DNA from: an uncultured Clostridium sp.
GTDB taxonomy: Bacteria; Bacillota; Clostridia; UBA1212; UBA1255
NCBI GenBank assembly: GCA_900543695.1
Contig: UQSG01000005.1
Location: 16,124 to 80,123 of the forward strand
DNA length: 64,000 bases
Direction: 5' to 3'
Within the stretch, counting starts at the first letter, position 1. Each line of letters begins with the position of its first letter. The notes under the pieces are model-generated. The model was not told where the DNA came from. It saw only the letters and a list, made by a program, of their open reading frames with translations, and ran no database searches. Positions 9,230-52,543 of this stretch are shown in pieces. A program made the translations under genes and the position numbers.

Positions 9230-9233
9230 ATCT

Positions 9234-11481: not shown

Positions 11482-11482
11482 A

Positions 11483-12754: not shown

Positions 12755-12760
12755 ACGCAA

Positions 12761-14773: not shown

Positions 14774-16210
14774 ATGAAGAAATCTCTGTCGTTTCTTTTA
14801 TCTCTGTTTCTTATCATTGCTCTGACCGCCTGCGGCCAGACGGGCAATAAGGGCGGGCGCGGACCGTCTGAAAATAATATTACAGGGGGATCGGATATGA
14901 ACGCTTCTGATCAATTTGTTCTGATTTCCGGGGGCTCCTTCCAGATGGGCAGCCCGGAATCCGAGGCGTGGCGCAGCGCCGATGAAACGCAGCATCACGT
15001 AACTGTCAGCGACTTTTACATGAGCCGGTACGAGCTGACGCAAAAAGAATACGAGGAAATCATGGGCAATAATCCCAGCAGCTTTACAGGCAGCAATCTG
15101 CCGGTCGAGAGCGTTTCCTGGCTCGACGCAGTCGCTTACTGCAACGCCCGCAGCGAGAAGGAAGGCCTGGCTCCGGCCTATAAAATAAACGGGCAGGAAG
15201 TAACCTGGGACAGAAGCGCAAACGGGTACCGTCTGCCAACCGAAGCGGAATGGGAATACGCCTGCCGCGCGGGAACCACTACGCCATTTTATATGGAAAA
15301 CTCGCCGAGCGCTGCGGAAGCGAATTATTACGGTCATTATCCCTATCAGATCGAAGACCACTATTTTTCACAGGGGGATTTGGAGGTGCAGCCCGGTCAG
15401 TACAGGCAAACGACAATTGCTGTGGGCAGCTTCTCCCCAAATCCATATGGACTTTACGATATGTATGGGAATGTAAGCGAATGGGTATGGGATTATTACG
15501 GCGAATATCCCGCCGAAGAACAAGTCGACCCGGCCGGTCCGGCTTCCGGCACGCTCCGCGTTTATCGGGGCGGCGGCTGGAACGATTTTGCTAAAAATAT
15601 GCGTTCCGCATATCGCGCCACGCTGGAGCAGAATAAAAGCAGCTTTAATCTCGGAATCCGGTTAGTGTTAAATGCCGCTCCCGGCACGGGCAGTATATCG
15701 GGTACGGGCGCGCAGAGTGCAGGCGACGGCGGAAGCGGAAAAATCCTGATCGCCTATTTCTCCTGGGGCGGCAACACGGAAGGAATTGCGGAAGAGATTC
15801 AAAGGCAAACGGGCGCGGACCTGTTTGAGATTACAATGGTCCATCCGTATTCCACGGACTACAGCACCGTTTTAGAAGAAGCACAGCGAGATCAAAACGC
15901 ACAGGCTCGTCCGGAGCTTGCAGGCCGCGTAGAAAATATGGAGCAGTACGGCACGATCCTTTTGGGATATCCCAACTGGTGGGCCTCTATTCCCATGCCA
16001 GTGGCGTCATTCCTTGAAGTATTCGATTTTTCCGGAAAGACGATTATCCCGTTCTGTTCTCACGGCGGCGGCCGCCTGGGCCAGAGCTTAACGGCGATTG
16101 CAAAGCTTGCTCCGGATGCCGCCATGGGAGAAGCCCTTTCCGTACATTATTCGGGCGGCTCCAGCCTTGCGGAGGATGTCGCCGACTGGCTTAGCCGCAA
16201 TGGAATATAA
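14774..16210 (+). CDS. Lipoprotein fusing a formylglycine-generating-enzyme (SUMF1/FGE-sulfatase) domain to a C-terminal flavodoxin-like domain (module 2 of 3)
   Basis: Signal/lipobox LIIALTACGQ. FGE domain GGSFQMGSP...RYELTQKEYEEIMGNNPS...SVSWLDAVAYCNARS...YRLPTEAEWEYACRAG...RGGGW. C-terminal KILIAYFSWGGNTEGIA...GYPNWWASIP...PFCSHGGG. Confidence 0.8.
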   Translation: MKKSLSFLLSLFLIIALTACGQTGNKGGRGPSENNITGGSDMNASDQFVLISGGSFQMGSPESEAWRSADETQHHVTVSDFYMSRYELTQKEYEEIMGNNPSSFTGSNLPVESVSWLDAVAYCNARSEKEGLAPAYKINGQEVTWDRSANGYRLPTEAEWEYACRAGTTTPFYMENSPSAAEANYYGHYPYQIEDHYFSQGDLEVQPGQYRQTTIAVGSFSPNPYGLYDMYGNVSEWVWDYYGEYPAEEQVDPAGPASGTLRVYRGGGWNDFAKNMRSAYRATLEQNKSSFNLGIRLVLNAAPGTGSISGTGAQSAGDGGSGKILIAYFSWGGNTEGIAEEIQRQTGADLFEITMVHPYSTDYSTVLEEAQRDQNAQARPELAGRVENMEQYGTILLGYPNWWASIPMPVASFLEVFDFSGKTIIPFCSHGGGRLGQSLTAIAKLAPDAAMGEALSVHYSGGSSLAEDVADWLSRNGI

Positions 16211-24734: not shown

Positions 24735-25640
24735 TCAGGCGTTGCTTCTTTTCTTGAGAAGCACTGTCGCCAGCACGGCGGCCATTGCGACTACAGCTGC
24801 AAAATACATTGTATCGCCTGTAGGCGTGTTCGGAGTAGAGGGCTCCGAAGGATCCTCCGTACCGGGATCTACCGGCGTTTCCGGATCCTCTTCCGCAACT
24901 GCCGCAACCTTAAAGTCATCAAAGTAAACGATGTCCAGCAGATTTTCAGGGGAATCCATTCCATGTCCGTCGATCCGGAAAGCGCTGAGCGACGTTAATT
25001 CTCCGGACGCAGCTCCAGCGCCATTTTCAAAGGAGCCAATTTTTTCATCGTCCAGATAAAGATCGTAATTTTTCGTTCCCAGCTCGAATACAGCCGTCAG
25101 AACATAGTCATGGTTCGTTTCCAGGCCGGACTTCGCAGCCGTTTCCACTCCGTTCTGATAACCATGCGCAACAATCTGCCCATTAACCTTCTTTATAGCC
25201 AGGAAATTCGGTGTCCAGGATTCAACATCCTTCCCTGTGCTCCCGACTGTCGCGGTAAAGCCGTAATCTCCAAGCTGCGCAATCCGAAACGTAAATTGCA
25301 GCGCAACATATTTCGTCTCCGCAGGATATGCGGAAGCGTCCACGTTTGCCCGGATATTTGTGGATTCGGATGTATCGGCCGCTCTGAAATAAGTAACCGA
25401 ATTGGTCCCTCCGACTCCATTTTCGACAATCTGAAGGCCGCCCCCCTCGCTTCCGCCTACAAAGAACGGAAATCCGGCAGGCTTCTCCGCGTCGAAAAAT
25501 TTATCGTCTGTCGCGTCAAAATCTTCAAAATCACAGCTGAATACCGGTTCCTCAAGATTCACTGCCGCGGCGAACGCCGGGACTGCCGACAGGGAAGCAA
25601 ACAGCATAACGGCCAGCAAACAAGAAATAAGCTTTTTCAT
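24735..25640 (-). CDS. Cell-surface protein with signal peptide and conserved C-terminal TGD-TM-KKR tail
   Basis: N-terminus MKKLISCLLAVMLFASLSAVPAFA. Tail: PNTPTGDTMYFAAVVAMAAVLATVLLKKRSNA. GAAGGAG RBS. Confidence 0.7.
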   Translation of the reverse strand: MKKLISCLLAVMLFASLSAVPAFAAAVNLEEPVFSCDFEDFDATDDKFFDAEKPAGFPFFVGGSEGGGLQIVENGVGGTNSVTYFRAADTSESTNIRANVDASAYPAETKYVALQFTFRIAQLGDYGFTATVGSTGKDVESWTPNFLAIKKVNGQIVAHGYQNGVETAAKSGLETNHDYVLTAVFELGTKNYDLYLDDEKIGSFENGAGAASGELTSLSAFRIDGHGMDSPENLLDIVYFDDFKVAAVAEEDPETPVDPGTEDPSEPSTPNTPTGDTMYFAAVVAMAAVLATVLLKKRSNA

Positions 25641-25758: not shown

Positions 25759-26079
25759 TTAAATATAAATAATCAAGGCCATAAATACAAGATTTTCTTT
25801 TCCTGTATTTTTCAATGCGTGGCCGCAGCCGTCGGACGTATACGTAACGTCGCCCTCGCGGACGCTGCGCAGCGCGCCGTTGTCATTATATTCGCCTTCC
25901 CCCCGCAGGATAAAATACGTCTCGCACTCACCGTGATGAACGTGATATCCGATCGAGCTGCCGGGCTCCAGTATGATCTGAGCATACAAGCTGCACTTTC
26001 CGTTCATCTGCTCTTTGTCCAGCAGCTCCTGAATATAAGCGCAGCCCTTGCCGCCGTTTAAATTTTCTTCCGTTCGCAT
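25759..26079 (-). CDS. Cupin-domain protein, last gene of the large operon
   Basis: Cupin motifs G(Y)HVHHGECETYFILRGEG ... GHALKN. Only 20 nt downstream of the transporter gene. Confidence 0.7.
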   Translation of the reverse strand: MRTEENLNGGKGCAYIQELLDKEQMNGKCSLYAQIILEPGSSIGYHVHHGECETYFILRGEGEYNDNGALRSVREGDVTYTSDGCGHALKNTGKENLVFMALIIYI

Positions 26080-26099
26080 ATAAAAAACTCCTTTTCTTT

Positions 26100-27368
26100 T
26101 CAGATCAGTACGGCGATCAGCTGGGAAGCAAGCACGACCAGCACAAGCGCCACCGGATAGGTTGCCGCGTAAGCGGAGGCTACATCATCCGTTCCGGATA
26201 CGCCGATCAGCGTTCCCAGTGCCGGCGTGCTCGTCATTCCGCCCGTAATGGAACCAAGATTGTTAAGCAGGCTGATTTTGAGAAGCTTCTTTGCCACAAA
26301 AAACCCAACGAACATGGGAACGACCGTCATGACGACGCCCGCCAGGAAGCCGTACAAAAGAAGCATCGCGCCGTACTGCGAGGCCTGAATCTGTGAAACA
26401 AGCTCTACGCCGCCCTCTACGCCGGCTCCGATCAGGAACAGCATCAGTCCAAATTCGCGGAATACCTTCAGCGTTTTCTCCGAAACCTTCAGACTCAGCC
26501 TGCCGATCCGGCCGAAATGTCCCAAGATCAGCGCCAGAATGAGAGGCCCGCCCGTATTGCCGAGAGAAAACTTGGCGCCCTCGTATCCGGCAGAAGAAAA
26601 CGGAATTGTAACGGATCCCAAAATGATTCCCAGCACTACGGCAATGCCGAACGTGCCGAGTCCGTATTCATCAAGCGCAAGCAGCTTCCGGCCGGATTCT
26701 TCCTTAACCGTCGGAGCTTCGATTCCGGCTTTCATTTTAACGCGTTCCTCCGCCATATTTGCCTTCATGAATTTCGGAACGAGCTGTACGAACAATACTA
26801 CGCCGACAACGCCGAACGGATATGCGATCGCGTGTCCCAGAGAAACCAGCCCCTGCGCATCCTCAGGCACGGCGGATTTTGCAGCAGAAAAGCCCGGCGT
26901 GCTCGTCAGGGCGCCGGACATGATGCCCGTACCAAACGGAGAGCCGATCCCCGGGATCAGAGAAAACAGCGCGCACAGGATCGCGCCGGAGGCAATAATG
27001 ATTACGCCCAAAAGCACATAGGATTTTGCGTTTTTCTTCAGATTCCGGAAAAAGCTCGGTCCGGCGATAAAGCCGACGGCTGTAACGAACAGCACCAGCC
27101 CGACGGCTTCAATCATCTTATAATACTGAACATTTGCCGTATCCGTGCTTTCGATAAAAAAGTTTTCCAGAATCGGAAGCTCCGCTAAGCCCGGCAGCGT
27201 AAAAAGATATCCGAACAGCAGCGCCATCAGGAAGACGCCAGCAGTCCCGAGCGAAACGCCCTTGATCGTGATCCTTCCGAGCGCATACCCGAGCGCGGCA
27301 ATCAGGAAAGAGCCAAACAATACGACCGTCATGCCGCTGAGAGAAAAAATTTTGCTTAAAATATCCAT
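26100..27368 (-). CDS. Putative dicarboxylate/amino-acid exchanger of the AAE (AspT/SucE/YidE-like) family
   Basis: 422 aa, about 10-12 TM helices arranged as an internal duplication. Gly-rich loops (PGIGSPFGTGIMSGALTSTPGFSA). 20 nt after the flavoprotein gene. Confidence 0.6.
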   Translation of the reverse strand: MDILSKIFSLSGMTVVLFGSFLIAALGYALGRITIKGVSLGTAGVFLMALLFGYLFTLPGLAELPILENFFIESTDTANVQYYKMIEAVGLVLFVTAVGFIAGPSFFRNLKKNAKSYVLLGVIIIASGAILCALFSLIPGIGSPFGTGIMSGALTSTPGFSAAKSAVPEDAQGLVSLGHAIAYPFGVVGVVLFVQLVPKFMKANMAEERVKMKAGIEAPTVKEESGRKLLALDEYGLGTFGIAVVLGIILGSVTIPFSSAGYEGAKFSLGNTGGPLILALILGHFGRIGRLSLKVSEKTLKVFREFGLMLFLIGAGVEGGVELVSQIQASQYGAMLLLYGFLAGVVMTVVPMFVGFFVAKKLLKISLLNNLGSITGGMTSTPALGTLIGVSGTDDVASAYAATYPVALVLVVLASQLIAVLI

Positions 27369-27388
27369 TTTCTCCGTTTTCCTCCGTT

Positions 27389-29017
27389 TTATTTCGCTTC
27401 GTATTTCGGATTTCCGTGCGTATATCTCGGAAGAAGCTGCGGGGAGACTTTATCGGTGACAACTCCCGCTTCCGCCAGAGCCTGGTCAAAGCGCGCAATA
27501 TGATCCAGCGTAAGCGCTCCGGTTTTCGAAATCGTTTTTGCCTTCGCCGCAGCGCTGATTCCGGCATTTCTGCCGAATACGATAATATCAAGCAGAGAAT
27601 TTCCCATCAGACGGTTTTCTCCGTGAATCCCTCCTACGGCCTCTCCGGCAACGTAGAGATTCTCCACCTCTGACATTCCGTCAGCGCCGATTTTAATGCC
27701 TCCGTTCTGATAGTGAAGCGTCGGATAAATCAGGATCGGCTTTTCCCTCATATCGTAGCCGTATTTCAGGAACATGCGAAGCATGGCGGGAATGCGCTTT
27801 TCAATTGCGCCCGTGCCGTGAATCGCCTCGATCATCGGCGTATCCAGCCAGATTCCAAAGCCGTCCGGCGTCGGAATGCCTTTTCCTCTTTCCTGGCACT
27901 CGCGAATGATAGATGCCGCGGAAACGTCTCTCGTCTCCAGAGGGTGCATAAATGCTTCTCCGTCTACGTTCACCAGCATGGCGCCCAGAGAGCGAACCTT
28001 TTCCGTCACAAGCGCGCCGAAAATCTGCGCCGGGAACGCGACGCCTGTCGGATGATACTGCAGCGTATAGGCATATAGAAGCGAGGCTCCCGCGCGGTAC
28101 GCCAGAACAAGACCGTCTGCCGTAGCGCCGTAATGGTTCGAGGTCGGAAAGCCCTGGTAATGCAGCCTGCCGGCGCCGCCCGTGGCAATGATCACCGTTT
28201 TCGCACGGGCAACCAGAATCTCCCTTGTTTCCATATTCATCAGGACCGCTCCGGCCGCCTTTCCGTTTTCGTCCAGAATCAGCTCGATGGCCGCCGTGAA
28301 ATCGACGACCGGGATTCCTCTGTTGATGACCTCGTCGCGCAGCACGCGCATAATCTCCGCGCCTGAATAGTCCTTCGCTGCGTGCATACGCTTTCTGGAG
28401 GTTCCTCCTCCATGCGTAGTCAGCATCGTACCGTCCGCTTCCTTATCGAACATCACGCCCAGATCGTTCAGCCATTTTACGGCGCCGGGGCCTTCAGTTA
28501 CCAGTTTATAGAGCAGTTCAGGCACATTTTTAAAGTGTCCGCCGCCAAGCGCGTCGACATAATGGATCATCGGCGAATCGTTTTCCTTGTCTGCCGCCTG
28601 AATTCCGCCCTCTGCCATCATGGTGTTGGCGTCGCCATGGCGCAGCTTTGTGACGATCATCACATTGGCCCCATTTTCATGCGCCATAATCGCCGCGGAA
28701 GAGCCCGCTCCGCCCCCGCCGATCACGAGCACGTCTACGTCATAGTCCGGATGCTCCAGATCCACGGACTCCGGCTTGACGCGGCTGTGCGCCTGCAATA
28801 AAGCCGCAAGCTCCTTGGGTACGCGCTCTCCTTTATTCGGGCCCATGACAAGCGTATCAAAATTTTCTTTTTTATAATCCGGATGGAATTTCGCAAGCAG
28901 CGCCTCTTTTTCCTCCGCCGTCATGCGTCTCGGCTCGAATCCGATACGCGACGGGCGCGTTGCCTCAACTTTCTGGATCGAATCCAGCATTTCCTGTGTA
29001 TATAATGAATCGCTCAT
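27389..29017 (-). CDS. FrdA/SdhA-family FAD flavoprotein (soluble fumarate-reductase-like catalytic subunit) with an ~90-aa N-terminal extension
   Basis: FAD motif DVLVIGGGGAGSSAAI. Conserved QYHPTG and GLYAAGE-type (LYVAGEAVGGIHGENRLMGNSL) motifs. 542 aa. Confidence 0.75.
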   Translation of the reverse strand: MSDSLYTQEMLDSIQKVEATRPSRIGFEPRRMTAEEKEALLAKFHPDYKKENFDTLVMGPNKGERVPKELAALLQAHSRVKPESVDLEHPDYDVDVLVIGGGGAGSSAAIMAHENGANVMIVTKLRHGDANTMMAEGGIQAADKENDSPMIHYVDALGGGHFKNVPELLYKLVTEGPGAVKWLNDLGVMFDKEADGTMLTTHGGGTSRKRMHAAKDYSGAEIMRVLRDEVINRGIPVVDFTAAIELILDENGKAAGAVLMNMETREILVARAKTVIIATGGAGRLHYQGFPTSNHYGATADGLVLAYRAGASLLYAYTLQYHPTGVAFPAQIFGALVTEKVRSLGAMLVNVDGEAFMHPLETRDVSAASIIRECQERGKGIPTPDGFGIWLDTPMIEAIHGTGAIEKRIPAMLRMFLKYGYDMREKPILIYPTLHYQNGGIKIGADGMSEVENLYVAGEAVGGIHGENRLMGNSLLDIIVFGRNAGISAAAKAKTISKTGALTLDHIARFDQALAEAGVVTDKVSPQLLPRYTHGNPKYEAK

Positions 29018-29030
29018 GGCTCCGCCCTCC

Positions 29031-29705
29031 TTATTTTTCGATTTCTCTGTTGTTGTACATGGTTTTCAGCTCATCGAGCGGTTTTGCCATCAGATCCTTC
29101 ATCGGCTGCACATAATCGCCGCGCTCGATCTCCGCGACGCGTTTTTCGAGATGCTCTGATCTTGGCGCGAGATATTTTCCCGTCAGTCTTCTGGCAAGCA
29201 GCGCCACCTGCGGGTGGGAAATCTGCGCCGGGCAGCGCGAGGAGCAGATGCCGCACATCACGCAGTCAAACGATTCTTCTGCACATTTCGCATACTCGGC
29301 TCTCTGCGCGTATGCAATGTACTGCATTACGTTGAGCCCCTGCGTACAGCTCTTCGTACAGGCGTTGCACCCGATACAGCTGTAAATTTCCGGATAAAGC
29401 TGCATCATGATCTGCTCCGTAGGACGGATCTTCTCAATATCATACGTTTGCTTCACAACCGGAAAGAACGGAATCTGCGCCACATACATGTTTTCTTCGA
29501 CTTTCGTCTGGCAGGCAAGGCACACCTTGAGCTCCGGATCTCCTTTGATTCTGTATACCGAAGCGCAGGCGCCGCAAAAACCGTTTCTGCAGCCGCAGCC
29601 GCGCACCAGCTGGTAGCCGGCATATTCCATAGCATCCATGATGGTGAGTTCTGAGGGGACGGAATACTTTTTCCCCATGATAAATACGTTAACCATTTTT
29701 TCCAT
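29031..29705 (-). CDS. FrdB/SdhB-like iron-sulfur subunit (N-terminal 2Fe-2S ferredoxin domain plus two 4Fe-4S motifs)
   Basis: CGCRNGFCGACAS (2Fe-2S). CIGCNACTKSC and CVMCGICSSRCP (4Fe-4S). Confidence 0.75.
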   Translation of the reverse strand: MEKMVNVFIMGKKYSVPSELTIMDAMEYAGYQLVRGCGCRNGFCGACASVYRIKGDPELKVCLACQTKVEENMYVAQIPFFPVVKQTYDIEKIRPTEQIMMQLYPEIYSCIGCNACTKSCTQGLNVMQYIAYAQRAEYAKCAEESFDCVMCGICSSRCPAQISHPQVALLARRLTGKYLAPRSEHLEKRVAEIERGDYVQPMKDLMAKPLDELKTMYNNREIEK

Positions 29706-29737
29706 GTCTTTTTGCCTTCACTTTCTGTAAGAATCCA

Positions 29738-30565
29738 TTAATATTCGTTCGGGAGCTCGTCGAGCTGGTCGCAGCGGAATACCGGTCCGTCCTTACAGAC
29801 GTATTTCGATCCGATATTGCAGCGGCCGCATTTGCCGACGCCGCATTTCATGCGCAGTTCCATTGTTGTATAAACCTGCGTTTTGTCATACCCCATTTCC
29901 TGCAGCGAGGCCAGCGTAAACTTAATCATGATCGGAGGGCCGCAAAGCAGCGCCGTTTTGTGAACGTCGAAATTCAGTTCTTTCACATAAGCAGGAACAA
30001 AGCCCACGTGGCCGTCCCAGCCGTCCTGCGGACGGTCAATGGTGAGGTGAACATCCACATTTTCCGCGTGCGCCCACTCGTTGCGGATCTGATCAATATC
30101 TACAAGATCGTCTGCGGAGCGCGAGCCGTACACGATATCGATTTTACCGTAATCGCCGCGTTTCGCCAGGCAATAATCAATTACGGAGCGCAGCGGCGCA
30201 AGGCCGATTCCGCCTGCAATAAACAGTAAATCCTTTCCCTTCAGCGCCGTGTCAACGGGGAAAGCATGACCGTAGGGCCCGCGTATGGTGATCGCCTGAC
30301 CAACCTCCATCTGATGCAGCCATTCCGTAAAGCCGCCGCACCGCTTGATGCTGAATTCCATATACTCCCGGTTTGTCGGAGAAGACGTAATCGAAAACAT
30401 CGCCTCGCCGACGCCCGGCATTGAAAGCATCGCGCACTGGCCCGGCATGTGGTCGAAGCATTTTCCGCCTTCCGGCGCGTTCACCCGGAAGGTTTTCACG
30501 TCGGGCGTATCCGTGCGGATATCAGTTACGATTCCGATCTGCGGAATCAATACATCGGGATTCAT
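29738..30565 (-). CDS. FlxA-like NAD(P)H:FAD oxidoreductase with C-terminal 2Fe-2S (AsrB/HydG/PyrK family)
   Basis: Ferredoxin-reductase fold (RxYS-like MFSITS, GGIGLAPL). C-terminal CGVGKCGRC. Confidence 0.75.
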   Translation of the reverse strand: MNPDVLIPQIGIVTDIRTDTPDVKTFRVNAPEGGKCFDHMPGQCAMLSMPGVGEAMFSITSSPTNREYMEFSIKRCGGFTEWLHQMEVGQAITIRGPYGHAFPVDTALKGKDLLFIAGGIGLAPLRSVIDYCLAKRGDYGKIDIVYGSRSADDLVDIDQIRNEWAHAENVDVHLTIDRPQDGWDGHVGFVPAYVKELNFDVHKTALLCGPPIMIKFTLASLQEMGYDKTQVYTTMELRMKCGVGKCGRCNIGSKYVCKDGPVFRCDQLDELPNEY

Positions 30566-31614
30566 TTCGATTCACCTCCGAAGGATTTTATCACTTTTAC
30601 AATGTTCATGGACACCGGGCACTTGGAAAGACATCTGCCGCAGCCCACACAGGAGTACTCTCCGCCGTTGTTGGCCGGATAATAGACAAGCTTATGCATG
30701 AAGCGCTGGCGGAAGCGTTCGAGCTGACTCGTACGGGGATTGCCGTGCGCCATCTTTGTAAAATCGGAATACATGCAGGAATCCCAGCAGCGGAAGCGCT
30801 TGATTCCGTGTCCCGTGTCGAAATCACGAATATCGTAGCACTGACATGTCGGGCAGATAAAGGTACACGTTCCGCAGCCAATGCACGACTGATAGAGCTC
30901 CTGCCACTGCGGCGCGTAAAATACATCGTTCAGGCCCGTCGTCAGGCGGTCGCCGCTGAAATATTCCACGCTCAGTCCGCTGAGCGGCAGTCTGGCAAGA
31001 ATCGAGCGGATTTCTTCCTTTCGGTCCTCCAGGGCAGTCTCGTCCTTTTCAGACGCTTCCTCCAGAAGCGTTCCGAGCAGCTTCGTCAGCGCTTCTCCCT
31101 TTTCCGTTTCCGGGTTCCAATACAGCGCCGAATCCGTAAGCCACGTCGTTACGTCGCCTCCCGAGGGCTGCGCGGCGTCTATGCCGAATGTTCCGCAGAA
31201 GCACGTCTCTTCCGGCGCGCTGCACGCCATCGTTACGACGACGCCCGTTTCGCGGCGGCTTTGATAAAACGTATCTACGGGATCGCTGAGAAATACGGAA
31301 TCGAGGATTGCAAAGCTTTTTGCGTCGCAGGCGCGCACGCCGAATACCACAAAAGGCTCCGCCGGATCACGGTCCTCGACAAGATCAATATTCTTCCCGC
31401 TGACGCGGAAGGAAATCAGATTTTCGCTCTGTGGGAAAAACAGTTCTTTTGCCGATTTGACCGTATTGAGGCAATCCAGGCAGACTCTGCTTTCCGGCGT
31501 CCATTTTTCAAACAGGCACTGGCCCGCGTCCTCCACCGGCAGATACAGGCTTTTGACAGCCGATATCGCCGCATAAAGCTCCGGCAGGCGCTCTCTTGCT
31601 ATTTTATACATCAT
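30562..31614 (-). CDS. FlxB-like Fe-S protein (AsrA-type)
   Basis: 350 aa with CSAPEETCFCGTFG and two ferredoxin motifs (CIGCGTCTFICPTC, CVGCGRCLSKCP). ATGA-type overlap. Confidence 0.65.
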   Translation of the reverse strand: MMYKIARERLPELYAAISAVKSLYLPVEDAGQCLFEKWTPESRVCLDCLNTVKSAKELFFPQSENLISFRVSGKNIDLVEDRDPAEPFVVFGVRACDAKSFAILDSVFLSDPVDTFYQSRRETGVVVTMACSAPEETCFCGTFGIDAAQPSGGDVTTWLTDSALYWNPETEKGEALTKLLGTLLEEASEKDETALEDRKEEIRSILARLPLSGLSVEYFSGDRLTTGLNDVFYAPQWQELYQSCIGCGTCTFICPTCQCYDIRDFDTGHGIKRFRCWDSCMYSDFTKMAHGNPRTSQLERFRQRFMHKLVYYPANNGGEYSCVGCGRCLSKCPVSMNIVKVIKSFGGESK

Positions 31615-32609
31615 TTCTTCCCGCCTTTCTCATAGACAATACTCGGCTCCGCGTCCTGCTTCGTATAGGAAGTCAGCGGCGCTTCGATCGTTATGTCCGC
31701 CCCCGCCTGGTATTCTCCGTAAAGCTCATTGATATCTTTAATGAATTTTCGGTTAAGCAGGTGAAGCGGGATATTCTGCGGACAGACTCTCGTACATTCG
31801 CCGCAGTCCGTGCATCTTCCTGCTACGTGAAACGCGCGGATAATATGGAACAGATTTTCTTCGAAATCATCCGTATTCGCTTTGCTGGCGACGCCGGACT
31901 TCGGATTGTCAAATACGCACTGCACGCAGGAGCAGGCGGGGCAGATATTTCTGCACGCGTTGCAGCGGATGCAGCGGGAAAGCTCGTTTCTCCAGAAAGC
32001 GAAGCGTTCTTCTGCCGACAAATGCTCAAGATTTTCGATGTAGGCAAAGCGGCTTCCAAACTCCTGATTCGGAACGGCCTCCTCCGGTTCGTCCGCTTCA
32101 TCAGAAAGCGCGTCGTAAATCATATGCTTTTTACCCTTACAGGCTTTGCACTTTTCAAATAAAACGTCTTTTTTCGCACACGTCTTTTCTCCGTAGAGCG
32201 TTTCAAAAACGACCTGGTCCCCTTCAATTTTCGCTCCGGTAATTCCTCTTATGCCAAGTGCGCGCGCTGCCTCGGGATCTATCTTCCCACTGCAGGGAAC
32301 GCCCAGCACAAAAACGTTTTCCCTGCGGATTCTGTGCTCCTTCAGCAGCTGGTTGAACGAGTATGTATCGCAGGGCTTGAGCAGCGCTATGAGCTTTCCA
32401 TCCTTTTTGGATTCCGCGATGCAGTATTTGCTCTGGTTTGCAGCGCAGAAATCGTCATATATCATATTGTCCAGCGTTTCCTTTGTGAAAACGGCCGGAG
32501 TAACGTCGTAGCAAAACTCTCCGCTTTCCCAGGCCAGAACTCTGTCCGCCGCGCCGTCTTCCAGCAAAGAACGGCATTTCGATAAAATTTCCTCGCTTAT
32601 TCTTTGCAT
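31611..32609 (-). CDS. FlxC-like Cys-rich Fe-S protein
   Basis: Multiple Cys clusters: CIRCNACRNICPACSC, CTDCGECTRVCP, CKACKGKKH. Confidence 0.55.
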   Translation of the reverse strand: MQRISEEILSKCRSLLEDGAADRVLAWESGEFCYDVTPAVFTKETLDNMIYDDFCAANQSKYCIAESKKDGKLIALLKPCDTYSFNQLLKEHRIRRENVFVLGVPCSGKIDPEAARALGIRGITGAKIEGDQVVFETLYGEKTCAKKDVLFEKCKACKGKKHMIYDALSDEADEPEEAVPNQEFGSRFAYIENLEHLSAEERFAFWRNELSRCIRCNACRNICPACSCVQCVFDNPKSGVASKANTDDFEENLFHIIRAFHVAGRCTDCGECTRVCPQNIPLHLLNRKFIKDINELYGEYQAGADITIEAPLTSYTKQDAEPSIVYEKGGKK

Positions 32610-33043
32610 CTCAGATCCTCCAATTTCTTATTTTCACCCAAATTGTGGATAGTCGCTACAAATTCATTCATTGTGGCGGAAAATTTCGCGCCCTCCGCTG
32701 CGGAAATCCATTCCACTCTCGTGCGCTCCCTTTCGATGCCGAGAAAATCAAGCATACTGAACAGGAGCGTCATTCTCCTTCTCGCAAAGTAATTTCCGGA
32801 CGTATAATGGCAGTCGCCGGGATGGCATCCCGCAATGATCACGCCGTCCGCCCCTCTCTGAAAGGCTCGTAAAATAAACAGCGGATTTACGCGGCAGGAA
32901 CAAGGCACCCGGATGACCTTCACGTTCGCCGGATAGGAAAGCCGGCTTGAGCCCGCCAGGTCGGCGCCTGCGTAGCTGCACCAGTTGCAGCAGAACGCCA
33001 CAATCAGAGGCTTGAATTCATTTTTTGTTTCTTCTATCTGCAT
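32597..33043 (-). CDS. mvhD: MvhD/FlxD-type hydrogenase delta-subunit-like electron-transfer protein
   Basis: AFCCNWCSYAGAD...RVPCSCRVNP...GADGVIIAGCHPGDCHY is the MvhD/FlpD signature. 148 aa. Confidence 0.8.
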   Translation of the reverse strand: MQIEETKNEFKPLIVAFCCNWCSYAGADLAGSSRLSYPANVKVIRVPCSCRVNPLFILRAFQRGADGVIIAGCHPGDCHYTSGNYFARRRMTLLFSMLDFLGIERERTRVEWISAAEGAKFSATMNEFVATIHNLGENKKLEDLRCKE

Positions 33044-35034
33044 ATCGCATCAACCTCCGCCATAATTTGTCTTGTTGTAAAGCCCTTCAGATCCATTGCG
33101 CCGGACGGACACGTTACGGTGCAGGCGCCGCAGCCCTGACAGATCGCTTCGTTTACTCTCGCGATTCTGCGGACTTCCCTTCTTCCATGATCGTTGATCT
33201 CCTTATCTACATAATCGATCGCGCCGTAAGGACAGACGCTTGCGCACTGCGAGCAGCCGTTGCACAGCAGCTCGTCAGAGCCGGCCACACACGGATTGCA
33301 TGTCAGCTTATCTTTTGCCAGCAGTCCGATTACCTTTGCCGCGGCGGCGCTTGCCTGCGCGACGGTTTCCGGAATATCCTTCGGCCCCTGGCAGACGCCG
33401 GAAAGGTAGACGCCGGCTGTTGGGCTCTCAACCGGACGCAGCTTGGGATGCGCTTCCGTCAGGAAATTGTTCGTGTCAATGCTCGCCGTCAGCATCGTCG
33501 CCAGATTCTTAACGTCAGGATCCGGCTCGATCGCCGTGGCCAGGACCACCAGATCCGCTTCGATCAGGACCTGCTCGTTCGCAATGAGATCCGAGCCCTG
33601 TACCAGAAGCTTCCCGTCCTTCTCCGCAACCTTTCCGACCATGCCCTTTATGTAATCCACGCCGTATTCTTCTACTGCGCGGCGGTAAAACTCATCAAAG
33701 TTTTTGCCGGGCGTCCGCACGTCGATATAGAAAACGTGCACCTTCGTATCCGGATATTTGTCGCGGATCATCATCGCATGCTTTGCCGTATACATACAGC
33801 AGATTTTGGAGCAGTACGGCTTGCCGCAGCCGGAAATATCTCTCGAGCCCACGCACTGAATGAATACGATTTCATGCGGATGTGCGTGATCAGACGGGCG
33901 CAGCAGCACGCCCTTCGTCGGGCCGGCCGCGTTCATCAGGCGTTCGAGCTCCAGCGATGTAATGACATCTTTATTCTGCGCATATCCGAACTCTTCGAAA
34001 TTTTCCAGTGAAATCGGCCTGTAGCCCGTTGCCACGACAATGGCGCCGTATTCCCGTTCCACGATTTCCTCTTTTTGCGTAAAATCAATCGCTTTCGCCG
34101 TGCAGTTTCTCTCGCACAGTCCGCACTTGCCCGTTTTCAGTTTAATGCAGTGCTCGGGATCGATTACCGCAACGTTCGGGATTGCCTGGGCAAACGGGAT
34201 ATATACCGCGCCCCGGTTGTCGAGTCCCATGTTGAATTCATTCGGCGCCTTGCGGGACGGACATTTTTCCGTACAGACGCCGCAGCCGGTGCAAAGCTCG
34301 GTATTGATATACCTTGGCTTTTTCTTGATTTTCACCCTGAAATTCCCCACGAAGCCCGATACGCTTTCGATTTCGCTGTATGTAAAGAGATTGATTTTAT
34401 CATTCGCAGCGGCATCCACCATTTTGGGCGTCAAAATACATGCCGCGCAGTCGAGCGTCGGGAAGGTTTTATCCAGCTGCGCCATTTTTCCCCCGATCGT
34501 AGGCGATTTTTCCACAATATCGACTTCGTAGCCGGCGTCCGCAACGTCCAGCGCAGTCTGAATCCCTGCGATGCCGCCGCCGATCACAAGCGCCCGTTTT
34601 GTCACCGCGCTTTCTCCAGCCGTCAGAGGCTGATTTAAATTCAGCTTTGCAATCGCCGCTTTTGCAAGAATGATCGCCTTCTCCGTTCCCTCGTCCTTAT
34701 CCTTGTGAATCCAGGAGCACTGCTCTCTGATATTGGCGATCTCTACCATGTACGGGTTCAGTCCGGCAGCCTGCGCCGTCTTCCGGAACGTTGTCTCATG
34801 CATACGCGGAGAACAGGAGCAGACAACGATTCCCGTCAGGCCGTAATCATGGATCGCCTGCCGGATTCTGGACTGTCCGCCCTCCGAGCACATATACTGG
34901 TAATCCGTCGAGATCACGACACCCGGCTCGCCGGCTACACTTTGCGCCACTTTCTCCACATCTACGGTGCCTGCAATATTGCTGCCGCACCAACAAACAA
35001 ATACTCCGATCTTTTGCAATTTATTCACTTCCAA
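33034..35034 (-). CDS. hdrA: Heterodisulfide reductase subunit A (FAD, multi-Fe-S)
   Basis: N-terminal Cys domain FVCWCGSN...VVCSCSP. FAD motif LVIGGGIAGIQTALDVADAG. Inserted and C-terminal ferredoxin motifs (CTGCGVCTEKCP, CNGCSQCASVCP, CQGCGACTVTCP). 666 aa. Confidence 0.85.
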   Translation of the reverse strand: MEVNKLQKIGVFVCWCGSNIAGTVDVEKVAQSVAGEPGVVISTDYQYMCSEGGQSRIRQAIHDYGLTGIVVCSCSPRMHETTFRKTAQAAGLNPYMVEIANIREQCSWIHKDKDEGTEKAIILAKAAIAKLNLNQPLTAGESAVTKRALVIGGGIAGIQTALDVADAGYEVDIVEKSPTIGGKMAQLDKTFPTLDCAACILTPKMVDAAANDKINLFTYSEIESVSGFVGNFRVKIKKKPRYINTELCTGCGVCTEKCPSRKAPNEFNMGLDNRGAVYIPFAQAIPNVAVIDPEHCIKLKTGKCGLCERNCTAKAIDFTQKEEIVEREYGAIVVATGYRPISLENFEEFGYAQNKDVITSLELERLMNAAGPTKGVLLRPSDHAHPHEIVFIQCVGSRDISGCGKPYCSKICCMYTAKHAMMIRDKYPDTKVHVFYIDVRTPGKNFDEFYRRAVEEYGVDYIKGMVGKVAEKDGKLLVQGSDLIANEQVLIEADLVVLATAIEPDPDVKNLATMLTASIDTNNFLTEAHPKLRPVESPTAGVYLSGVCQGPKDIPETVAQASAAAAKVIGLLAKDKLTCNPCVAGSDELLCNGCSQCASVCPYGAIDYVDKEINDHGRREVRRIARVNEAICQGCGACTVTCPSGAMDLKGFTTRQIMAEVDAICR

Positions 35035-35046
35035 TCTTTGCCGCTG

Positions 35047-35439
35047 TTATTTACTGTATTTTCTGAAGGCGCTGACGATGGCCTGCTGCGGGATGTTTTC
35101 GTCCAGCAGCTCCGGCACCATATTCGCTTTCAGATGATTTTCGCCCTGCTGGCGGATCACGCAGAGGCGCACCGCCTCGATCAGCTTTGCAGGCTCGACG
35201 CTTCTGGGGCATCGTTCGATACATGCAAAACAGGACAGGCAGGTCCAGATTGATTTAGATTCCATCAGCTTCCGGATCTGTCCCTTTTCAACCATCGCAA
35301 CAAACTGGTGGGGATGGTATTCCATTTCCTGATAGGAAGGACAGGTTCCGGAGCATTTGCCGCATTTCATACATTTTCTCGTATTTACACCGCTGATCCG
35401 GAGCACGCGTTCCGCAAGTTCCTTTTCGTTTACCGTCAC
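35047..35439 (-). CDS. hdrC: Heterodisulfide reductase subunit C-like 2x[4Fe-4S] protein
   Basis: CMKCGKCSGTCP and CLSCFACIERCP. 130 aa. Confidence 0.8.
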   Translation of the reverse strand: MTVNEKELAERVLRISGVNTRKCMKCGKCSGTCPSYQEMEYHPHQFVAMVEKGQIRKLMESKSIWTCLSCFACIERCPRSVEPAKLIEAVRLCVIRQQGENHLKANMVPELLDENIPQQAIVSAFRKYSK

Positions 35440-35451
35440 AAGTAACCCTCC

Positions 35452-36243
35452 TTATTTTACGCCGAGCGCCTCGGCAAGCAGTTCCGTAAAATAACAGACT
35501 TCCGGCTTTTTGTCTGCCGCAGCGTTTGCCTGCAGATTATACAGGCAAAGAGGACATGCCGTTATAATCGTGTCCGCACCCTTCGAAGCCGCCGATTCCA
35601 GAATCATGCCGCACCGCTTTGCCGGTATGGATTTATCCTCAAGCGAAGTGTATCCGCCGCAGCATTCGTTGCGATACGGCGTGAGGACCGGCTCGGCGCC
35701 GAGGGCGCGGATCAGGTCCTCCATCACAGACGGATTTTCGGGATTATCAAACTGCAGGACTTTTGCCGGGCGCAGAAGCAGGCAGCCATAATAGGCCGCA
35801 ATCTTTCTTCCCTTCAAAGGATTCTTGACCGCCGCCTTGATGTTGTCGAAGCCTACCGTGTCTCTCAGCATTTCCAAATAGTGGACGACTCTTGTTTCTC
35901 CGACGTAATCCGTATCCAGTTTTAAGTAATTATTGACTTTCAGGCGAATGTCGTCGTTTGAAAGCATATCGTCGTTCACTCTTTTTATAACATGGTGACA
36001 GGCCGAACACAATGTCAATAAATCCCTTCCCTGCCGTTTTGCACTGTCAAGCGCGCGTACGGCGGAAAGCTTAGTGGCGATTTCATCCAGTGCAAGAGGA
36101 TAAACGGCCCCGCAGCACTGCCAATCTTGTATTTCCTCCAGCGTAACGCCGAGAGCCTCCGCAGAGGCTCTCGCATAGCGGTCCAGATCTTTTGCCTTTG
36201 TTTTTAACGTGCAACCAGGATAGTAACTGTAAGTCATATTCAA
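35452..36243 (-). CDS. hdrB: Heterodisulfide reductase subunit B-like protein (two CCG domains)
   Basis: YYPGCTL...WQCCGAV...LCSACH and YYGCLLLRP...ECCGGY...ACPLCLYN. Confidence 0.8.
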   Translation of the reverse strand: MNMTYSYYPGCTLKTKAKDLDRYARASAEALGVTLEEIQDWQCCGAVYPLALDEIATKLSAVRALDSAKRQGRDLLTLCSACHHVIKRVNDDMLSNDDIRLKVNNYLKLDTDYVGETRVVHYLEMLRDTVGFDNIKAAVKNPLKGRKIAAYYGCLLLRPAKVLQFDNPENPSVMEDLIRALGAEPVLTPYRNECCGGYTSLEDKSIPAKRCGMILESAASKGADTIITACPLCLYNLQANAAADKKPEVCYFTELLAEALGVK

Positions 36244-36271
36244 TTTTCCTTTCGGTTTTGTAGCGCGGCTT

Positions 36272-37636
36272 TTATACCATTTGCTCCGGCTTGAATACTT
36301 CGTCGAATTTTTCAGCTGTCAGGAAGCCGAGCTGTACGCAGGCTTCCTTCAGGGAAATATTTTCCTTATAAGCCTTTTTGGCGGTTTTTGCCGCGTTGTC
36401 GTATCCGATGTACGGGTTCAGGGCCGTTACGAGCATCAGGGAATTATAAAGATTATGCTTCATTTTCTCACGGTTCGCGGTAATGCCGGATACGCAGTGA
36501 TCATTGAAAGAACGAATCCCGTCCGCCAGCAGGCGCACCGACTGAAGAAAATTGTAAATACATACGGGCATGAATACGTTGAGTTCAAAATTTCCCTGCG
36601 AAGCCGCCATGCCGACCGCCACGTCGTTTGCGATCACCTGCACCGCCACCATCGTCATCGATTCACACTGCGTGGGATTGACCTTGCCCGGCATAATCGA
36701 GCTGCCCGGTTCGTTTTCCGGAATGTGGATCTCGCCCAGTCCGCAGCGCGGCCCGCTGGCAAGCCAGCGCACGTCGTTTGCAATCTTCATAAGATCCGCA
36801 GCAAGCGCTTTCAGCGCGCCATGCGCAAAGACGAGCTCGTCCTTTGCAGTCAGAGCATGAAATTTATTTTCTGCCGAGAGGAAGTGCTTCCCTGTCAGCT
36901 CGCTGACGACCTTCGCGACTTCGGGACCGAATTGCTTCGGCGCGTTCAGGCCTGTGCCGACCGCTGTGCCGCCAAGCGCCAGCTCCTTCAGCCCCGGAAG
37001 CGCCGCCTCCAGCATTCCCTTTGTCTTTTCTATCATGTTTCTCCAGCCGCTGATCTCCTGAGAAAACTTAATCGGCGTCGCGTCCTGGAGATGCGTGCGC
37101 CCGCTCTTTACGACGTCGTCATTTTCGCGTTCAAGACGCCGAAATGTTTCAATCAGCGCGTCCATCGCAGGAAACAGCTGATCCTCGATTCCGATGACAG
37201 CTGCAATATGCATCGCCGTGGGGAACGTATCGTTGGAGCTTTGCGACATGTTGATATGATCGTTGGGATGAAGCAGCTTTTTCCCGCAGATTTCATTGCC
37301 TCTATTTGCAATGACTTCGTTTGCATTCATGTTTGACTGCGTACCGCTTCCCGTCTGCCATACCACAAGAGGAAAATGATCGTTCAATTTCCCGGCGATC
37401 ACCTCGTCGCACGCCTGTGAGATGACGGTTTTCTTTTCTTCGTCCAATTTCCCGAGATTATAGTTTGCGATTGCCGCGGCTTTCTTCAGAATTCCAAAGG
37501 CGTGTGTAATTTCTCTTGGCATGAGTTCTCCGCCGATCTTGAAATTCTGGTAGCTTCTCTGCGTCTGCGCCGCCCAATAGCGGTCTGCAGGCACCTGCAT
37601 TTCTCCCATCGAATCGCGTTCCGTACGATATTCCAT
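36272..37636 (-). CDS. fumC: Fumarate hydratase class II
   Basis: [15 protein letters not shown] signature and the [10 protein letters not shown] region. 454 aa. Confidence 0.9.
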
Positions 37637-37668
37637 GCTCGATTCCTCCTTTGTTTTACAGGCAGGCG

Positions 37669-38619
37669 TTAAAATTTCAGGCCTGCGATCATCTCTTTCA
37701 GGATGTTCCCGCTCTTTTGCATCAGTGCAAGTTCTTCATCCGTAAGCGTAGGCGTGACGCAGCCCTTCACGCCGTCGATTCCTACCACAAACAGATGACT
37801 CAGACAGACGTCGTGCAGACCGTATTCTCCATGCATCATGGAGGACAGCGTCATGATGTAGTCCTTTCCCGAAAACAGCGACTCGCACATACTGCTCACC
37901 GATACGGAAACGGCATAATACGTCGCCTGCTTATATTTAATAATTTTCCCGCCGGAGGTTCTGACGTAGTCCATAACCTCGTTATAGTTCGGAGGTTCAA
38001 TTGTATTTTTCCCGCTGTATTTGACGCCTCTGCAGTAATCCTCAATGCCGATTGCGGCGACCTTTGCCAGTGACCATGGTATAAATGAGGAATCGCCATG
38101 CTCTCCCATTACATATGCATGAATATTCCGCTGACTGACTCCGAAATAATCGGAAAGATAGTAACGAAGACGCGCCGTGTCCAGAATCGTTCCCGATCCT
38201 ATAATTTTGTTCTCAGGCAGGCCGGAATATTTCATAAATGCGTACGTTAATATATCCACAGGATTGCTGACGAGAATGTAAAGCGCGTCGGGCGCGTATT
38301 TTGCGATTTCCGGCGCAATTTCCTTGATGATATTTACGTTGGTCTGCGCAAGATCGAGGCGCGACTGACCCGGTTTTCTGGGAAGTCCGGAGGATACGAT
38401 GACGATGTCGGAGCCCTTTGCATCCTCATACGTTCCGGAATTTACCGTTACCGGGCAGCAGAAGGGTGTTCCCTGCTTGATATCCATCGCTTCCCCGAGC
38501 GCTTTTTCCGCGTTGATATCGATCAGCACAATTTCCGAAGCGATTCCTTTTACAGTCATGGTATAGGCAATTGTTGAGCCGACGCTTCCAGCCCCTATGA
38601 TTGTTACCTTATTGCTCAT
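37669..38619 (-). CDS. mdh: LDH-like malate dehydrogenase (Arg at the substrate-specificity position)
   Basis: LDH/MDH fold ([27 protein letters not shown]) with substrate loop [13 protein letters not shown], the MDH-type PRKPG motif. RBS favours the third Met. Confidence 0.75.
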
Positions 38620-38711
38620 ATGCATCCTCTTTTCTTTCTTTGATAATCGCGCCGCAGGATGCGTTTCCGGAAAATTTCCGCACGCTGAAAAAGCGCCTGC
38701 GCGCTCTGATC

Positions 38712-38740
38712 GATTATCCCATATACGGAATGAATTGTCA
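38712..38740 (-). promoter_or_regulatory. Sigma-70-type promoter of the 13-gene mdh-fumC-hdr-flx-frd operon
   Basis: Minus strand TTGACA-17 nt-GATAAT. About 85 nt of leader to the mdh start. Coordinates accurate to about 2 nt. Confidence 0.45.
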
Positions 38741-38887
38741 ATAAAAGAGGATTAATTTTTAATGAATGGGGAACTTCCTTTTCTTAAAAAACGCGTTTTT
38801 TTCGGTGTTTTTCCAGTTTGCGCTGGCCCGTTTTAAGAAAGACCGCGGCGCCCCGCATACCGAGGCGCCGCTGCTGCTGCAAAGCGT

Positions 38888-51329: not shown

Positions 51330-51358
51330 ATGTTCCCGAATCCTCCTGTGTCTTTCAA

Positions 51359-52294: not shown

Positions 52295-52543
52295 AATGAA
52301 CATCTCCTTTATGTATTTTGATGATACTATTCATATCTTTTACATTATACAACGGCGCAGGCAAAATGCAAGTTAAAAATTGCATTTCCGAAGCAGCGTC
52401 CGGGCCCTGCAAAATACCTATTGACAGGCAGATTTTTTTTGTTATAATTGCACTCGCGTGTTTAGTGAATCTAAACGAAAAGTTTACTTTTGCAAAACAT
52501 CGCAATTCGTCTTTTTTCGAAAAAACAGATGGGAGGCTTTCGT

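Follow-up and report, generated by a model that had tools for sequence, protein, structure and literature searches.

The 64,000-nucleotide (nt) stretch of DNA analysed here (hereafter, the window; contig UQSG01000005.1 of an uncultured Clostridium sp.) contains, on its minus strand, 13 consecutive open reading frames (positions 25759-38625). They bring together genes for a malate dehydrogenase, a fumarase, a heterodisulfide reductase (Hdr)-Flx electron-transfer module, a soluble fumarate reductase (FrdA and FrdB), a putative transporter and a cupin. How such a set of genes may act on fumarate is a question that matters for both anaerobic bioenergetics and gut succinate production. An earlier note on this DNA had described the 13 genes as tightly packed behind a single near-consensus promoter; their coordinates hold, and the promoter-like site matches the sigma-70-type consensus at 11 of 12 positions. 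Domains were assigned with Pfam and NCBIfam hidden Markov models and from signature residues, and these searches agree with all the gene identities proposed in that note, including the HdrABC, MvhD, AsrA/AsrB-like and SdhA/SdhB assignments. The features are listed below in 5' to 3' order (protein lengths in amino acids, aa; FAD, flavin adenine dinucleotide; PPIase, peptidyl-prolyl isomerase).

38845-38871, minus: intrinsic terminator of the upstream PPIase gene (11-bp stem with 10 G-C pairs, T-rich tail)
38713-38741, minus: sigma-70-type promoter-like site (TTGACA, 17 nt with an extended -10 TG, GATAAT; 11/12 matches)
37669-38625, minus: mdh, malate dehydrogenase of the lactate dehydrogenase-like, NAD-dependent type, 318 aa (Ldh_1_N and Ldh_1_C)
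36272-37636, minus: fumC, class II fumarate hydratase, 454 aa (TIGR00979, 741.7 bits against a cut-off of 664.75)
35452-36243, minus: hdrB-like gene, two CCG domains, 263 aa, or 261 aa from the ATG at 36237 (PF02754 twice)
35047-35439, minus: hdrC-like ferredoxin, 130 aa (Fer4_8 and Fer4_17; two CxxCxxCxxxCP motifs for [4Fe-4S])
33034-35034, minus: hdrA, full-length bifurcating-type flavoprotein, 666 aa, or 661 aa from the TTG at 35019
32597-33043, minus: mvhD/flxD, [2Fe-2S] connector subunit, 148 aa (PF02662 FlpD over its full length, E = 1.4e-55)
31611-32609, minus: flxC-like Fe-S protein, 332 aa (Fer4 dicluster domains; two CxxCxxCxxxCP motifs and further cysteines)
30562-31614, minus: flxB-like Fe-S protein of the AsrA/HydB/ShyB type, 350 aa (PF17179 Fer4_22, 106 bits)
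29738-30565, minus: flxA-like NAD(P)H/FAD subunit of the AsrB/HydG/PyrK type, 275 aa (FAD_binding_6, NAD_binding_1, DHODB_Fe-S_bind)
29031-29705, minus: frdB-like Fe-S subunit, 224 aa (Fer2_4, Fer2_3, Fer4 dicluster domain)
27389-29017, minus: frdA-like flavoprotein of a soluble fumarate reductase, 542 aa (PF00890, 222.7 bits, residues 95-475)
26100-27368, minus: short AAE-family transporter gene, 422 aa (PF06826, Asp-Al_Ex, twice, 204 bits)
25759-26079, minus: small cupin, 106 aa (Cupin_2, 55.6 bits)

The first five genes are separated by gaps of 32 nt (mdh/fumC), 28 nt (fumC/hdrB), 12 nt (hdrB/hdrC) and 12 nt (hdrC/hdrA). The following genes overlap by 10 nt (hdrA/mvhD), 13 nt (mvhD/flxC), 4 nt (flxC/flxB) and 4 nt (flxB/flxA), and the distal part of the unit again contains short gaps, of 32 nt (flxA/frdB), 13 nt (frdB/frdA), 20 nt (frdA/AAE) and 20 nt (AAE/cupin). 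The overlaps had all been described as ATGA junctions: those at 31611-31614 and 30562-30565 are literal ATGA sequences, whereas the other two are the longer overlaps of 10 and 13 nt. A Shine-Dalgarno-like sequence precedes each of the 13 start codons.

The terminator of the PPIase gene is the 5' boundary of the unit, and just after it comes the predicted promoter (38741-38713), known from its match to the consensus. No intrinsic terminator was found 3' of the cupin gene, and the next gene (24735-25640, minus) has its own promoter-like site (25726-25698). This neighbouring gene, retained in contigs of the same species, encodes a protein of 301 aa whose N-terminus (MKKLISCLLAVML) resembles a signal peptide or that of a lipoprotein, and which has no Pfam or NCBIfam match. 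The gene order of the unit is repeated on independent human-gut metagenome contigs of the same species (loci L001-L003), and the arrangement is therefore not an assembly artefact.

The 5' leader (38664-38705, minus) contains a small hairpin with a T-run (AGCGC-GCAG-GCGCT-TTTT), followed by a perfect palindrome, CGGAAATTTTCCGGAAA (about 38680-38664). A role of this palindrome as an operator is unsupported, since it is missing upstream of the operon in 52 related loci. Regulation by Rex was also considered and rejected: there is no Rex-box match near the promoter, and the sole match in the window (at 41400, with 3 mismatches) is no more than would be expected by chance. A search for riboswitches and other known RNAs in the leader gave zero Rfam matches across the whole window.

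Hdr-Flx, FrdBA and the substrate genes

The identities of the genes, together with the cofactor motifs and catalytic residues of their products, are clear from the domain content and from alignments. The HdrB-like protein carries two complete motifs for non-cubane [4Fe-4S] clusters (C11, C43, C44, C79, C82 and C154, C194, C195, C230, C233) and matches methanogen HdrB (8rvv) with 114 bits; NCBIfam ranks SdhE first (147 bits) and HdrB second (134 bits), neither of them reaching its cut-off. The best NCBIfam match of the HdrC-like protein is HdrC itself (TIGR03290, 70 bits, under cut-off). HdrA aligns end to end (residues 6-664, 693 bits) with methanogen HdrA (8rvu, 5odc), a bifurcating protein of known structure, and the alignment takes in the inserted and the C-terminal ferredoxin domains; the protein shows all four domains, with FAD and motifs for six Fe-S clusters, and scores 800 bits with the HdrA2 model NF040770, whose cut-off of 1100 is not reached. 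Among the Flx-type proteins, FlxB resembles ShyB (173 bits) and AsrA (130 bits), both under their cut-offs, while FlxA, which matches the HydG and AsrB families and has a C-terminal [2Fe-2S] motif, is the predicted entry point of NADH.

FrdB contains a [2Fe-2S] motif (C39-x4-C44-x2-C47...C62/65) and two complete CxxCxxCxxxC motifs for [4Fe-4S] clusters. Its third site is the four-cysteine form CxxCxxCxxxCP, the three-cysteine [3Fe-4S] motif being absent. The N-terminus matches the N-termini of TfrB and SdhB, with scores of 41.8 for TfrB (cut-off 385) and 32.8 for the SdhB/FrdB model TIGR00384 (cut-off 88), and by Pfam the protein carries no CCG domain.

FrdA has the Rossmann motif VIGGGGAG for FAD binding, preceded by a cysteine-free N-terminal extension of 90 residues; there is a single cysteine in the whole protein, and Pfam gives no match to the C-terminal domain Succ_DH_flav_C (PF02910). 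Its best NCBIfam match is TfrA (323.8 bits against a cut-off of 718, aligned to positions 6-407 of 546), and it fails both TIGR01812 (255 against 567) and the FrdA model NF006686 (187 against 854). Comparison with SdhA of E. coli (1nek) and Sdh1 of M. smegmatis (7d6v) revealed that the His of HPTG, the Thr-Glu of LVTE, the proton-donating Arg, the second His and the second Arg are all kept; in the family alignment (A1), H322, E339, R342, H435 and R469 do not vary. Asn131, also invariant in A1, takes the place of the covalent-FAD His45 of E. coli SdhA, and FAD is therefore predicted to be bound non-covalently. Non-covalent binding lowers the flavin potential and confines enzymes of the Sdh/Frd type to fumarate reduction. 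An AlphaFold2 model of FrdA (pLDDT 87.9, pTM 0.89), in which the N-terminal extension is folded with high confidence, has SdhA, FrdA and flavocytochrome c3 as its top structural matches. The flavoprotein had been described as lacking a membrane anchor, and indeed the operon contains no gene for an anchor subunit (SdhC/D, FrdC/D); the 13 queries used on related loci included no anchor protein.

The products of the flanking genes fit a route to fumarate. Mdh passes both the malate dehydrogenase (MDH) subfamily model NF004863 (289.9, cut-off 283) and models of lactate dehydrogenase (LDH; 350.4 against 339). The LDH alternative was set aside in favour of MDH, an assignment which, as the LDH models are also passed, rests on a signature residue and on genomic context: the specificity loop has Arg at the Gln102/Arg102 position, as in MDH, and the best match in the PDB (1y6j) shares this Arg at the switch position. 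Metagenome records place the start of mdh at 38619 instead, which gives 316 aa. FumC, besides passing the fumarase model, fails that of aspartase (TIGR00839, 462 against 681).

The AAE-family protein passes TIGR01625 (152, cut-off 72), and its scores with the AspT and YidE equivalog models are far under the cut-offs. Full-length proteins of this type (AspT, YidE, SucE) have central TrkA_C domains and about 540-560 aa, whereas the 422-aa protein of the window lacks TrkA_C and has Asp-Al_Ex as its sole Pfam family. Candidate roles for it are the export of succinate and dicarboxylate:succinate exchange.

Conservation of the core and other settings of FrdBA

Species-representative genomes were scanned for FrdA, and the best 80 loci, all of them at least 66% identical to FrdA of the window, come from metagenome-assembled genomes (MAGs), so that close homologues are present in at least 80 species-level genomes. 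P. thermosuccinogenes (see below) is not among these 80. Most of the MAGs bear labels of Clostridia (Acutalibacteraceae, Oscillospiraceae, Christensenellaceae, 'Ruminococcus sp.' and others), and they were obtained mainly from human, ruminant, horse, chicken and other animal guts. A figure of 580 relatives was not used as a family count, since the degenerate patterns may also match ordinary SdhA or NadB genes. A HMMER search of the whole library for relatives at the 50%-identity level indicated that FrdA proteins with the N-terminal extension form a small subfamily, which includes one natural FrdB-FrdA fusion. In the metagenome collection, 414 blocks contain the exact FrdA sequence of the window.

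Comparison of the related loci by tblastn with the 13 proteins of the window, restricted for the core count to loci with more than 7.7 kb upstream, established the evolutionary linkage of nine genes: hdrB-hdrC-hdrA-mvhD-flxC-flxB-flxA-frdB-frdA are collinear in 56 of 57 species genomes. The functional link between Hdr-Flx and FrdBA proposed in the earlier note is thus strongly supported. Directly upstream of this core, both mdh and fumC are present in 23 of 51 related genomes, mdh only in 12, fumC only in 10, and neither in 6. The operon therefore includes mdh in 35 and fumC in 33 of the 51, and the presence of one or both in 45 ties the substrate of the module to fumarate. Of 59 related genomes, 33 carry an AAE gene downstream of frdA. 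Like mdh and fumC, this gene is a frequent accessory of the nine-gene core. The cupin gene, which the earlier note placed in the operon, is indeed packed into the unit, but it lies outside the conserved module: among all the loci compared it is found only in L001-L003, which belong to the window's own species.

Several more distant relatives of FrdBA occur in other settings. A MAG of Gammaproteobacteria (L086:7366-10891) contains three overlapping genes, for an FrdB-like protein (212 aa), an FrdA-like protein with the same N-terminal extension (545 aa) and a NuoF-like protein (418 aa; Complex1_51K and NADH_4Fe-4S), and this trio is a candidate three-subunit soluble NADH:fumarate reductase. In another locus (L090:699-9659) genes for four subunits of a 2-oxoacid:ferredoxin oxidoreductase are followed by hdrA, mvhD, hdrC, hdrB, frdB and frdA, the FrdA homologue being 56% identical. 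This cluster has no Flx genes; it could represent an Hdr-Frd system linked to ferredoxin or to 2-oxoacids, perhaps within a reductive branch of the tricarboxylic acid cycle. A natural FrdB-FrdA fusion of 727 aa (L087:5250-7433, P0122) stands alone on a short contig. FrdBA is thus a portable soluble reductase module, whose association with Hdr recurs in two divergent lineages. A further member of the FrdA subfamily (42% identical; L088:6001-8357) has frdB downstream and lies on a contig in whose protein cluster one sequence bears the name of Prochlorococcus sp. MIT 1201, an unexpected host for a module of anaerobe type.

Public records give the genes of the module no annotation more specific than 'FAD-binding protein', '(2Fe-2S)-binding protein' or 'hypothetical'. 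Because of this generic annotation, standard markers of fumarate reductase probably miss succinate production by abundant uncultured bacteria of the gut and rumen.

Proposed electron path and rival explanations

Taken together, these data make it likely that the operon encodes a cytoplasmic, quinone-independent reduction of fumarate by NADH, via Flx-Hdr and soluble FrdAB, in which ferredoxin is probably reduced as well. In this pathway Mdh would convert oxaloacetate to malate and FumC malate to fumarate, which FrdA and FrdB, containing a non-covalent FAD, one 2Fe-2S and two 4Fe-4S clusters, would reduce to succinate. Electrons from NADH would enter at FlxA (FAD, 2Fe-2S) and pass through FlxB/FlxC and MvhD/FlxD to the FAD of HdrA. 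From this flavin, a high-potential branch would lead through HdrC, the non-cubane clusters of HdrB, the clusters of FrdB and the FAD of FrdA to fumarate, while ferredoxin would most probably be reduced in a low-potential branch through the ferredoxin domains of HdrA. The overall reaction would be 2 NADH + fumarate + oxidised ferredoxin -> 2 NAD+ + succinate + reduced ferredoxin. Reduced ferredoxin might be used by Rnf, Ech or a hydrogenase, and the reduction of fumarate would thereby conserve energy without a membrane-bound fumarate reductase; succinate would probably leave the cell via the AAE transporter. The potential of ferredoxin is about -420 to -500 mV. Given the potentials of the fumarate/succinate (E0' +33 mV) and NAD+/NADH (-320 mV) couples (PMC5861303), bifurcation is thermodynamically allowed.

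The physical complex, the direct wiring of HdrB to FrdB and the co-reduction of ferredoxin are what we infer from the content and conservation of the genes, and several observations weigh against so full a reading. All the Hdr, Flx and Frd subunits score under the NCBIfam equivalog cut-offs, and their functions are therefore transferred from distant relatives. The searchable literature contains no biochemical evidence for the existence of such a complex, for its reduction of fumarate with NADH or for its reduction of ferredoxin. The only one of the 57 genomes that breaks the core (L054:8079-11605, a MAG of Congzhengia sp.) has a CitMHS carboxylate transporter gene followed by frdB-frdA, with a gene for enzyme I of the phosphotransferase system further upstream and no adjacent Hdr-Flx genes, and other distant FrdBA homologues also stand alone as pairs; FrdBA therefore does not strictly need Hdr-Flx. 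Co-transcription of the 13 genes is suggested by their spacing and, like electron bifurcation to ferredoxin and the export of succinate by the AAE protein, is putative.

Among the alternatives, Flx-Hdr might merely wire NADH to FrdBA, with no ferredoxin being reduced. The transfer of electrons from NADH to fumarate is strongly exergonic by itself (potentials in PMC5861303). Moreover, the operon includes no ferredoxin gene, and relatives of FrdBA appear to work with a single NADH-oxidising subunit of the NuoF type (L086). If one such subunit suffices, however, it is hard to explain why seven subunits of Flx-Hdr, with an HdrA that contains both ferredoxin domains, have been kept in 56 of 57 genomes. 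To our knowledge, every biochemically characterised complex with the full-length type of HdrA bifurcates. The conservation of the seven-subunit Hdr-Flx with an intact HdrA of the bifurcating type, where a NuoF-like subunit is enough elsewhere, thus favours bifurcation, and we regard a non-bifurcating NADH:fumarate oxidoreductase as unlikely. A shuttle of thiols between two separate enzymes, one (Flx-Hdr) reducing a disulfide with NADH and bifurcating to ferredoxin, the other (FrdBA) oxidising the thiols to reduce fumarate, as does the archaeal thiol:fumarate reductase (TfrAB), would agree with TfrA being the best family match of FrdA, with the two complete CCG motifs of the heterodisulfide-reducing site retained in HdrB, and with the passage of electrons from Flx-Hdr to 'ferredoxin (and thiols)' described for Pseudoclostridium thermosuccinogenes in PMC7282089. 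In TfrB, however, CCG domains are fused to the Fe-S subunit, whereas FrdB of the window has no CCG domain and the only cysteine of FrdA lies outside the extension, so that FrdBA has no obvious thiol-oxidising site and HdrB is the only site of thiol/disulfide type in the unit. The operon also lacks a candidate gene for a thiol cofactor or a DsrC-like protein. With HdrB as the sole CCG protein, no thiol-oxidising site in FrdB or FrdA, and a NuoF-like partner of FrdBA elsewhere, direct Fe-S wiring is favoured and the thiol shuttle appears rather improbable. The modularity of FrdBA, seen in its NuoF-like partner, in the Flx-less Hdr cluster (L090) and in the FrdB-FrdA fusion, points to direct wiring as well.

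The remaining alternatives concern the substrate and the direction of the reaction. The earlier note had considered that the flavoprotein might group with L-aspartate oxidase (NadB), and it could in principle be this enzyme or a reductase of another enoate (e.g. urocanate or acrylate), placing the operon in another pathway. FrdA does score 263.6 bits with the NadB model TIGR00551 (cut-off 452.75), all its family scores being under the curated cut-offs; AAE proteins include aspartate:alanine antiporters, and FumC is homologous to aspartase. On the other hand, TfrA (324 against 264 bits) and the Sdh/Frd models outscore NadB, and the position of the NadB-specific active-site Glu, which we take to be Glu121 in E. 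coli, is occupied by His203, in a column that is variable in the family. All the dicarboxylate-binding and catalytic residues are kept, FumC passes as a fumarase and fails as an aspartase, nadA and nadC are not nearby, and mdh, fumC or both share the operon in the 45 genomes mentioned above. On the strength of these family scores, active-site residues and neighbours, NadB or any other non-fumarate flavoprotein was rejected as very improbable. Finally, since complexes of the Hdr type are reversible in principle, succinate might be oxidised with electron confurcation in an oxidative pathway. This we consider scarcely credible. The covalent-FAD His is replaced by Asn in every member of the family, and enzymes with non-covalent FAD oxidise succinate poorly; formation of 2 NADH from succinate and reduced ferredoxin is endergonic at standard potentials; and the known carrier of a similar operon, Pseudoclostridium thermosuccinogenes, produces succinate (PMC7282089).

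The favoured reading, NADH-dependent fumarate reduction through Flx-Hdr and FrdAB, can be extended, although tentatively and with slightly less confidence for than against. The nine-gene module may form one soluble supercomplex, representing a new class of NADH-dependent, ferredoxin-reducing bifurcating fumarate reductases, in which electrons pass from HdrB to FrdB directly and without thiols. It may be the main, previously unrecognised energy-conserving route to succinate in a large set of menaquinone-independent Clostridia of the gut and rumen, with a FrdBA part that is portable to NuoF-like and Flx-less Hdr inputs. Should the mechanism proposed above hold, fumarate reduction in these Clostridia would be soluble and quinone-free, and would still conserve energy via ferredoxin and Rnf or Ech; fumarate would then count among the few high-potential acceptors by which flavin-based electron bifurcation is driven.

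Other genes of the window are of separate interest. A shikimate/aromatic amino acid cluster (6963-13651, plus) encodes, in order, a D-2-hydroxyacid dehydrogenase, 5-enolpyruvylshikimate-3-phosphate (EPSP) synthase, chorismate synthase, chorismate mutase-prephenate dehydratase, a fused shikimate dehydrogenase-shikimate kinase and a LysR regulator. The gene at 14774-16210 (plus) encodes an unusual 478-aa protein in which an FGE-sulfatase domain, resembling the formylglycine-generating enzyme, is fused to a C-terminal Flavodoxin_4 domain. At 50103-52303 (minus), a phosphofructokinase gene (408 aa) adjoins that of a class II fructose-bisphosphate aldolase, which fits a saccharolytic fermenter.

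Relation to known systems

The earlier note considered this combination of genes to be undescribed. However, a 'succinate operon' composed of fumC, seven Flx-Hdr genes, two frd genes and a gene for a small hypothetical protein has already been reported in P. thermosuccinogenes (Koendjbiharie et al. 2020, PMC7282089), and its genes match those of the window in order and size. That operon (CDQ83_RS03315-RS03365) is highly expressed as one regulatory unit, changing about 4-fold with the supply of CO2, and its authors propose the same coupling, i.e. NADH-dependent fumarate reduction with reduction of ferredoxin (PMC7282089). A bifurcating fumarate reductase is reported to be proposed in a 2019 preprint cited there (Koendjbiharie & van Kranenburg, doi 10.20944/preprints201912.0288.v1). 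The operon of the window is therefore a real further instance of a previously proposed, unproven system. The two are compared here by gene order and by the sizes given in supplementary file 1 of PMC7282089. They share the order fumC, hdrB, hdrC, five genes from hdrA to flxA, frdB, frdA, and the sizes are as follows.

fumC: 1365 nt in P. thermosuccinogenes, 1365 nt in the window
hdrB: 783 nt in P. thermosuccinogenes, 792 nt in the window
hdrA to flxA, five genes: 5347 nt in P. thermosuccinogenes, 5297 nt in the window
frdB: 675 nt in P. thermosuccinogenes (CDQ83_RS03325), 675 nt in the window
frdA: 1602 nt in P. thermosuccinogenes, 1629 nt in the window

The window differs in having mdh as its first gene, a 422-aa AAE protein in place of an 82-aa hypothetical one, and an added cupin; its host, in contrast to P. 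thermosuccinogenes, is an uncultured mesophilic Clostridium of the human gut. What the present analysis adds is the strict conservation of the nine-gene core across many gut Clostridia, the frequent recruitment of mdh, fumC and the AAE transporter gene, and the argument that the domain content and the other partners of FrdBA favour direct wiring over a thiol shuttle. A link between HdrA of Firmicutes and flavoproteins of the Sdh/Frd type (e.g. in Ruminococcus champanellensis) has also been found with STRING (bioRxiv 10.1101/2024.09.26.615249).

The same seven subunit types, all encoded together here, make up FlxABCD-HdrABC of Desulfovibrio vulgaris. The gene order of the window, hdrBCA-flxDCBA, appears to differ from that of D. 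vulgaris. According to the accounts of Ramos et al. 2015 given in PMC7282089 and PMC5861303, the D. vulgaris complex is proposed to oxidise NADH with bifurcation to ferredoxin. Its proposed high-potential acceptor, in ethanol/sulfate metabolism, is the DsrC disulfide, whereas here FrdBA is genetically joined to the module and the region of the window examined contains no DsrC-like gene.

Archaeal TfrAB (Methanothermobacter) is likewise soluble, without an anchor or a quinone, and its Fe-S subunit, TfrB, also combines a 2Fe-2S cluster with two 4Fe-4S clusters. This subunit is collinear with the N-terminus of FrdB of the window, the HdrC-like dicluster and the CCG domains of HdrB, taken in turn. 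In TfrB, however, the CCG domains are fused and the electron donors are coenzyme M (CoM-SH) and coenzyme B (CoB-SH), whereas the window has a separate HdrB within an NADH-dependent Hdr-Flx module, in a bacterial host for which no coenzyme M/B context is visible in the window. FrdA also differs from TfrA, having a different N-terminal extension and lacking the C-terminal domain.

In type E SdhABE enzymes (the succinate:quinone or methylmenaquinol:fumarate reductases of Sulfolobus, Campylobacter and Wolinella) an HdrB-like CCG protein, SdhE, is the partner of an Sdh/Frd dimer. SdhE is the top NCBIfam match of the HdrB-like protein of the window, though its 147 bits are far under the cut-off of 500. 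In type E enzymes a second 4Fe-4S cluster replaces the 3Fe-4S centre, as it does in FrdB of the window. They are nevertheless membrane-associated and quinone-linked, with covalent FAD, while the system of the window gives no sign of membrane association.

The same logic is found in other flavin-based bifurcating reductases with a C=C acceptor, the Bcd-EtfAB complex, acting on crotonyl-CoA, and the caffeyl-CoA reductase-Etf complex, in which NADH reduces a high-potential enoate (E0' about 0 mV) together with ferredoxin, and Rnf then conserves the energy (PMC5861303). These systems use an unrelated bifurcating module (Etf rather than HdrA), and their substrate is a CoA thioester, whereas that of the system proposed here would be free fumarate.

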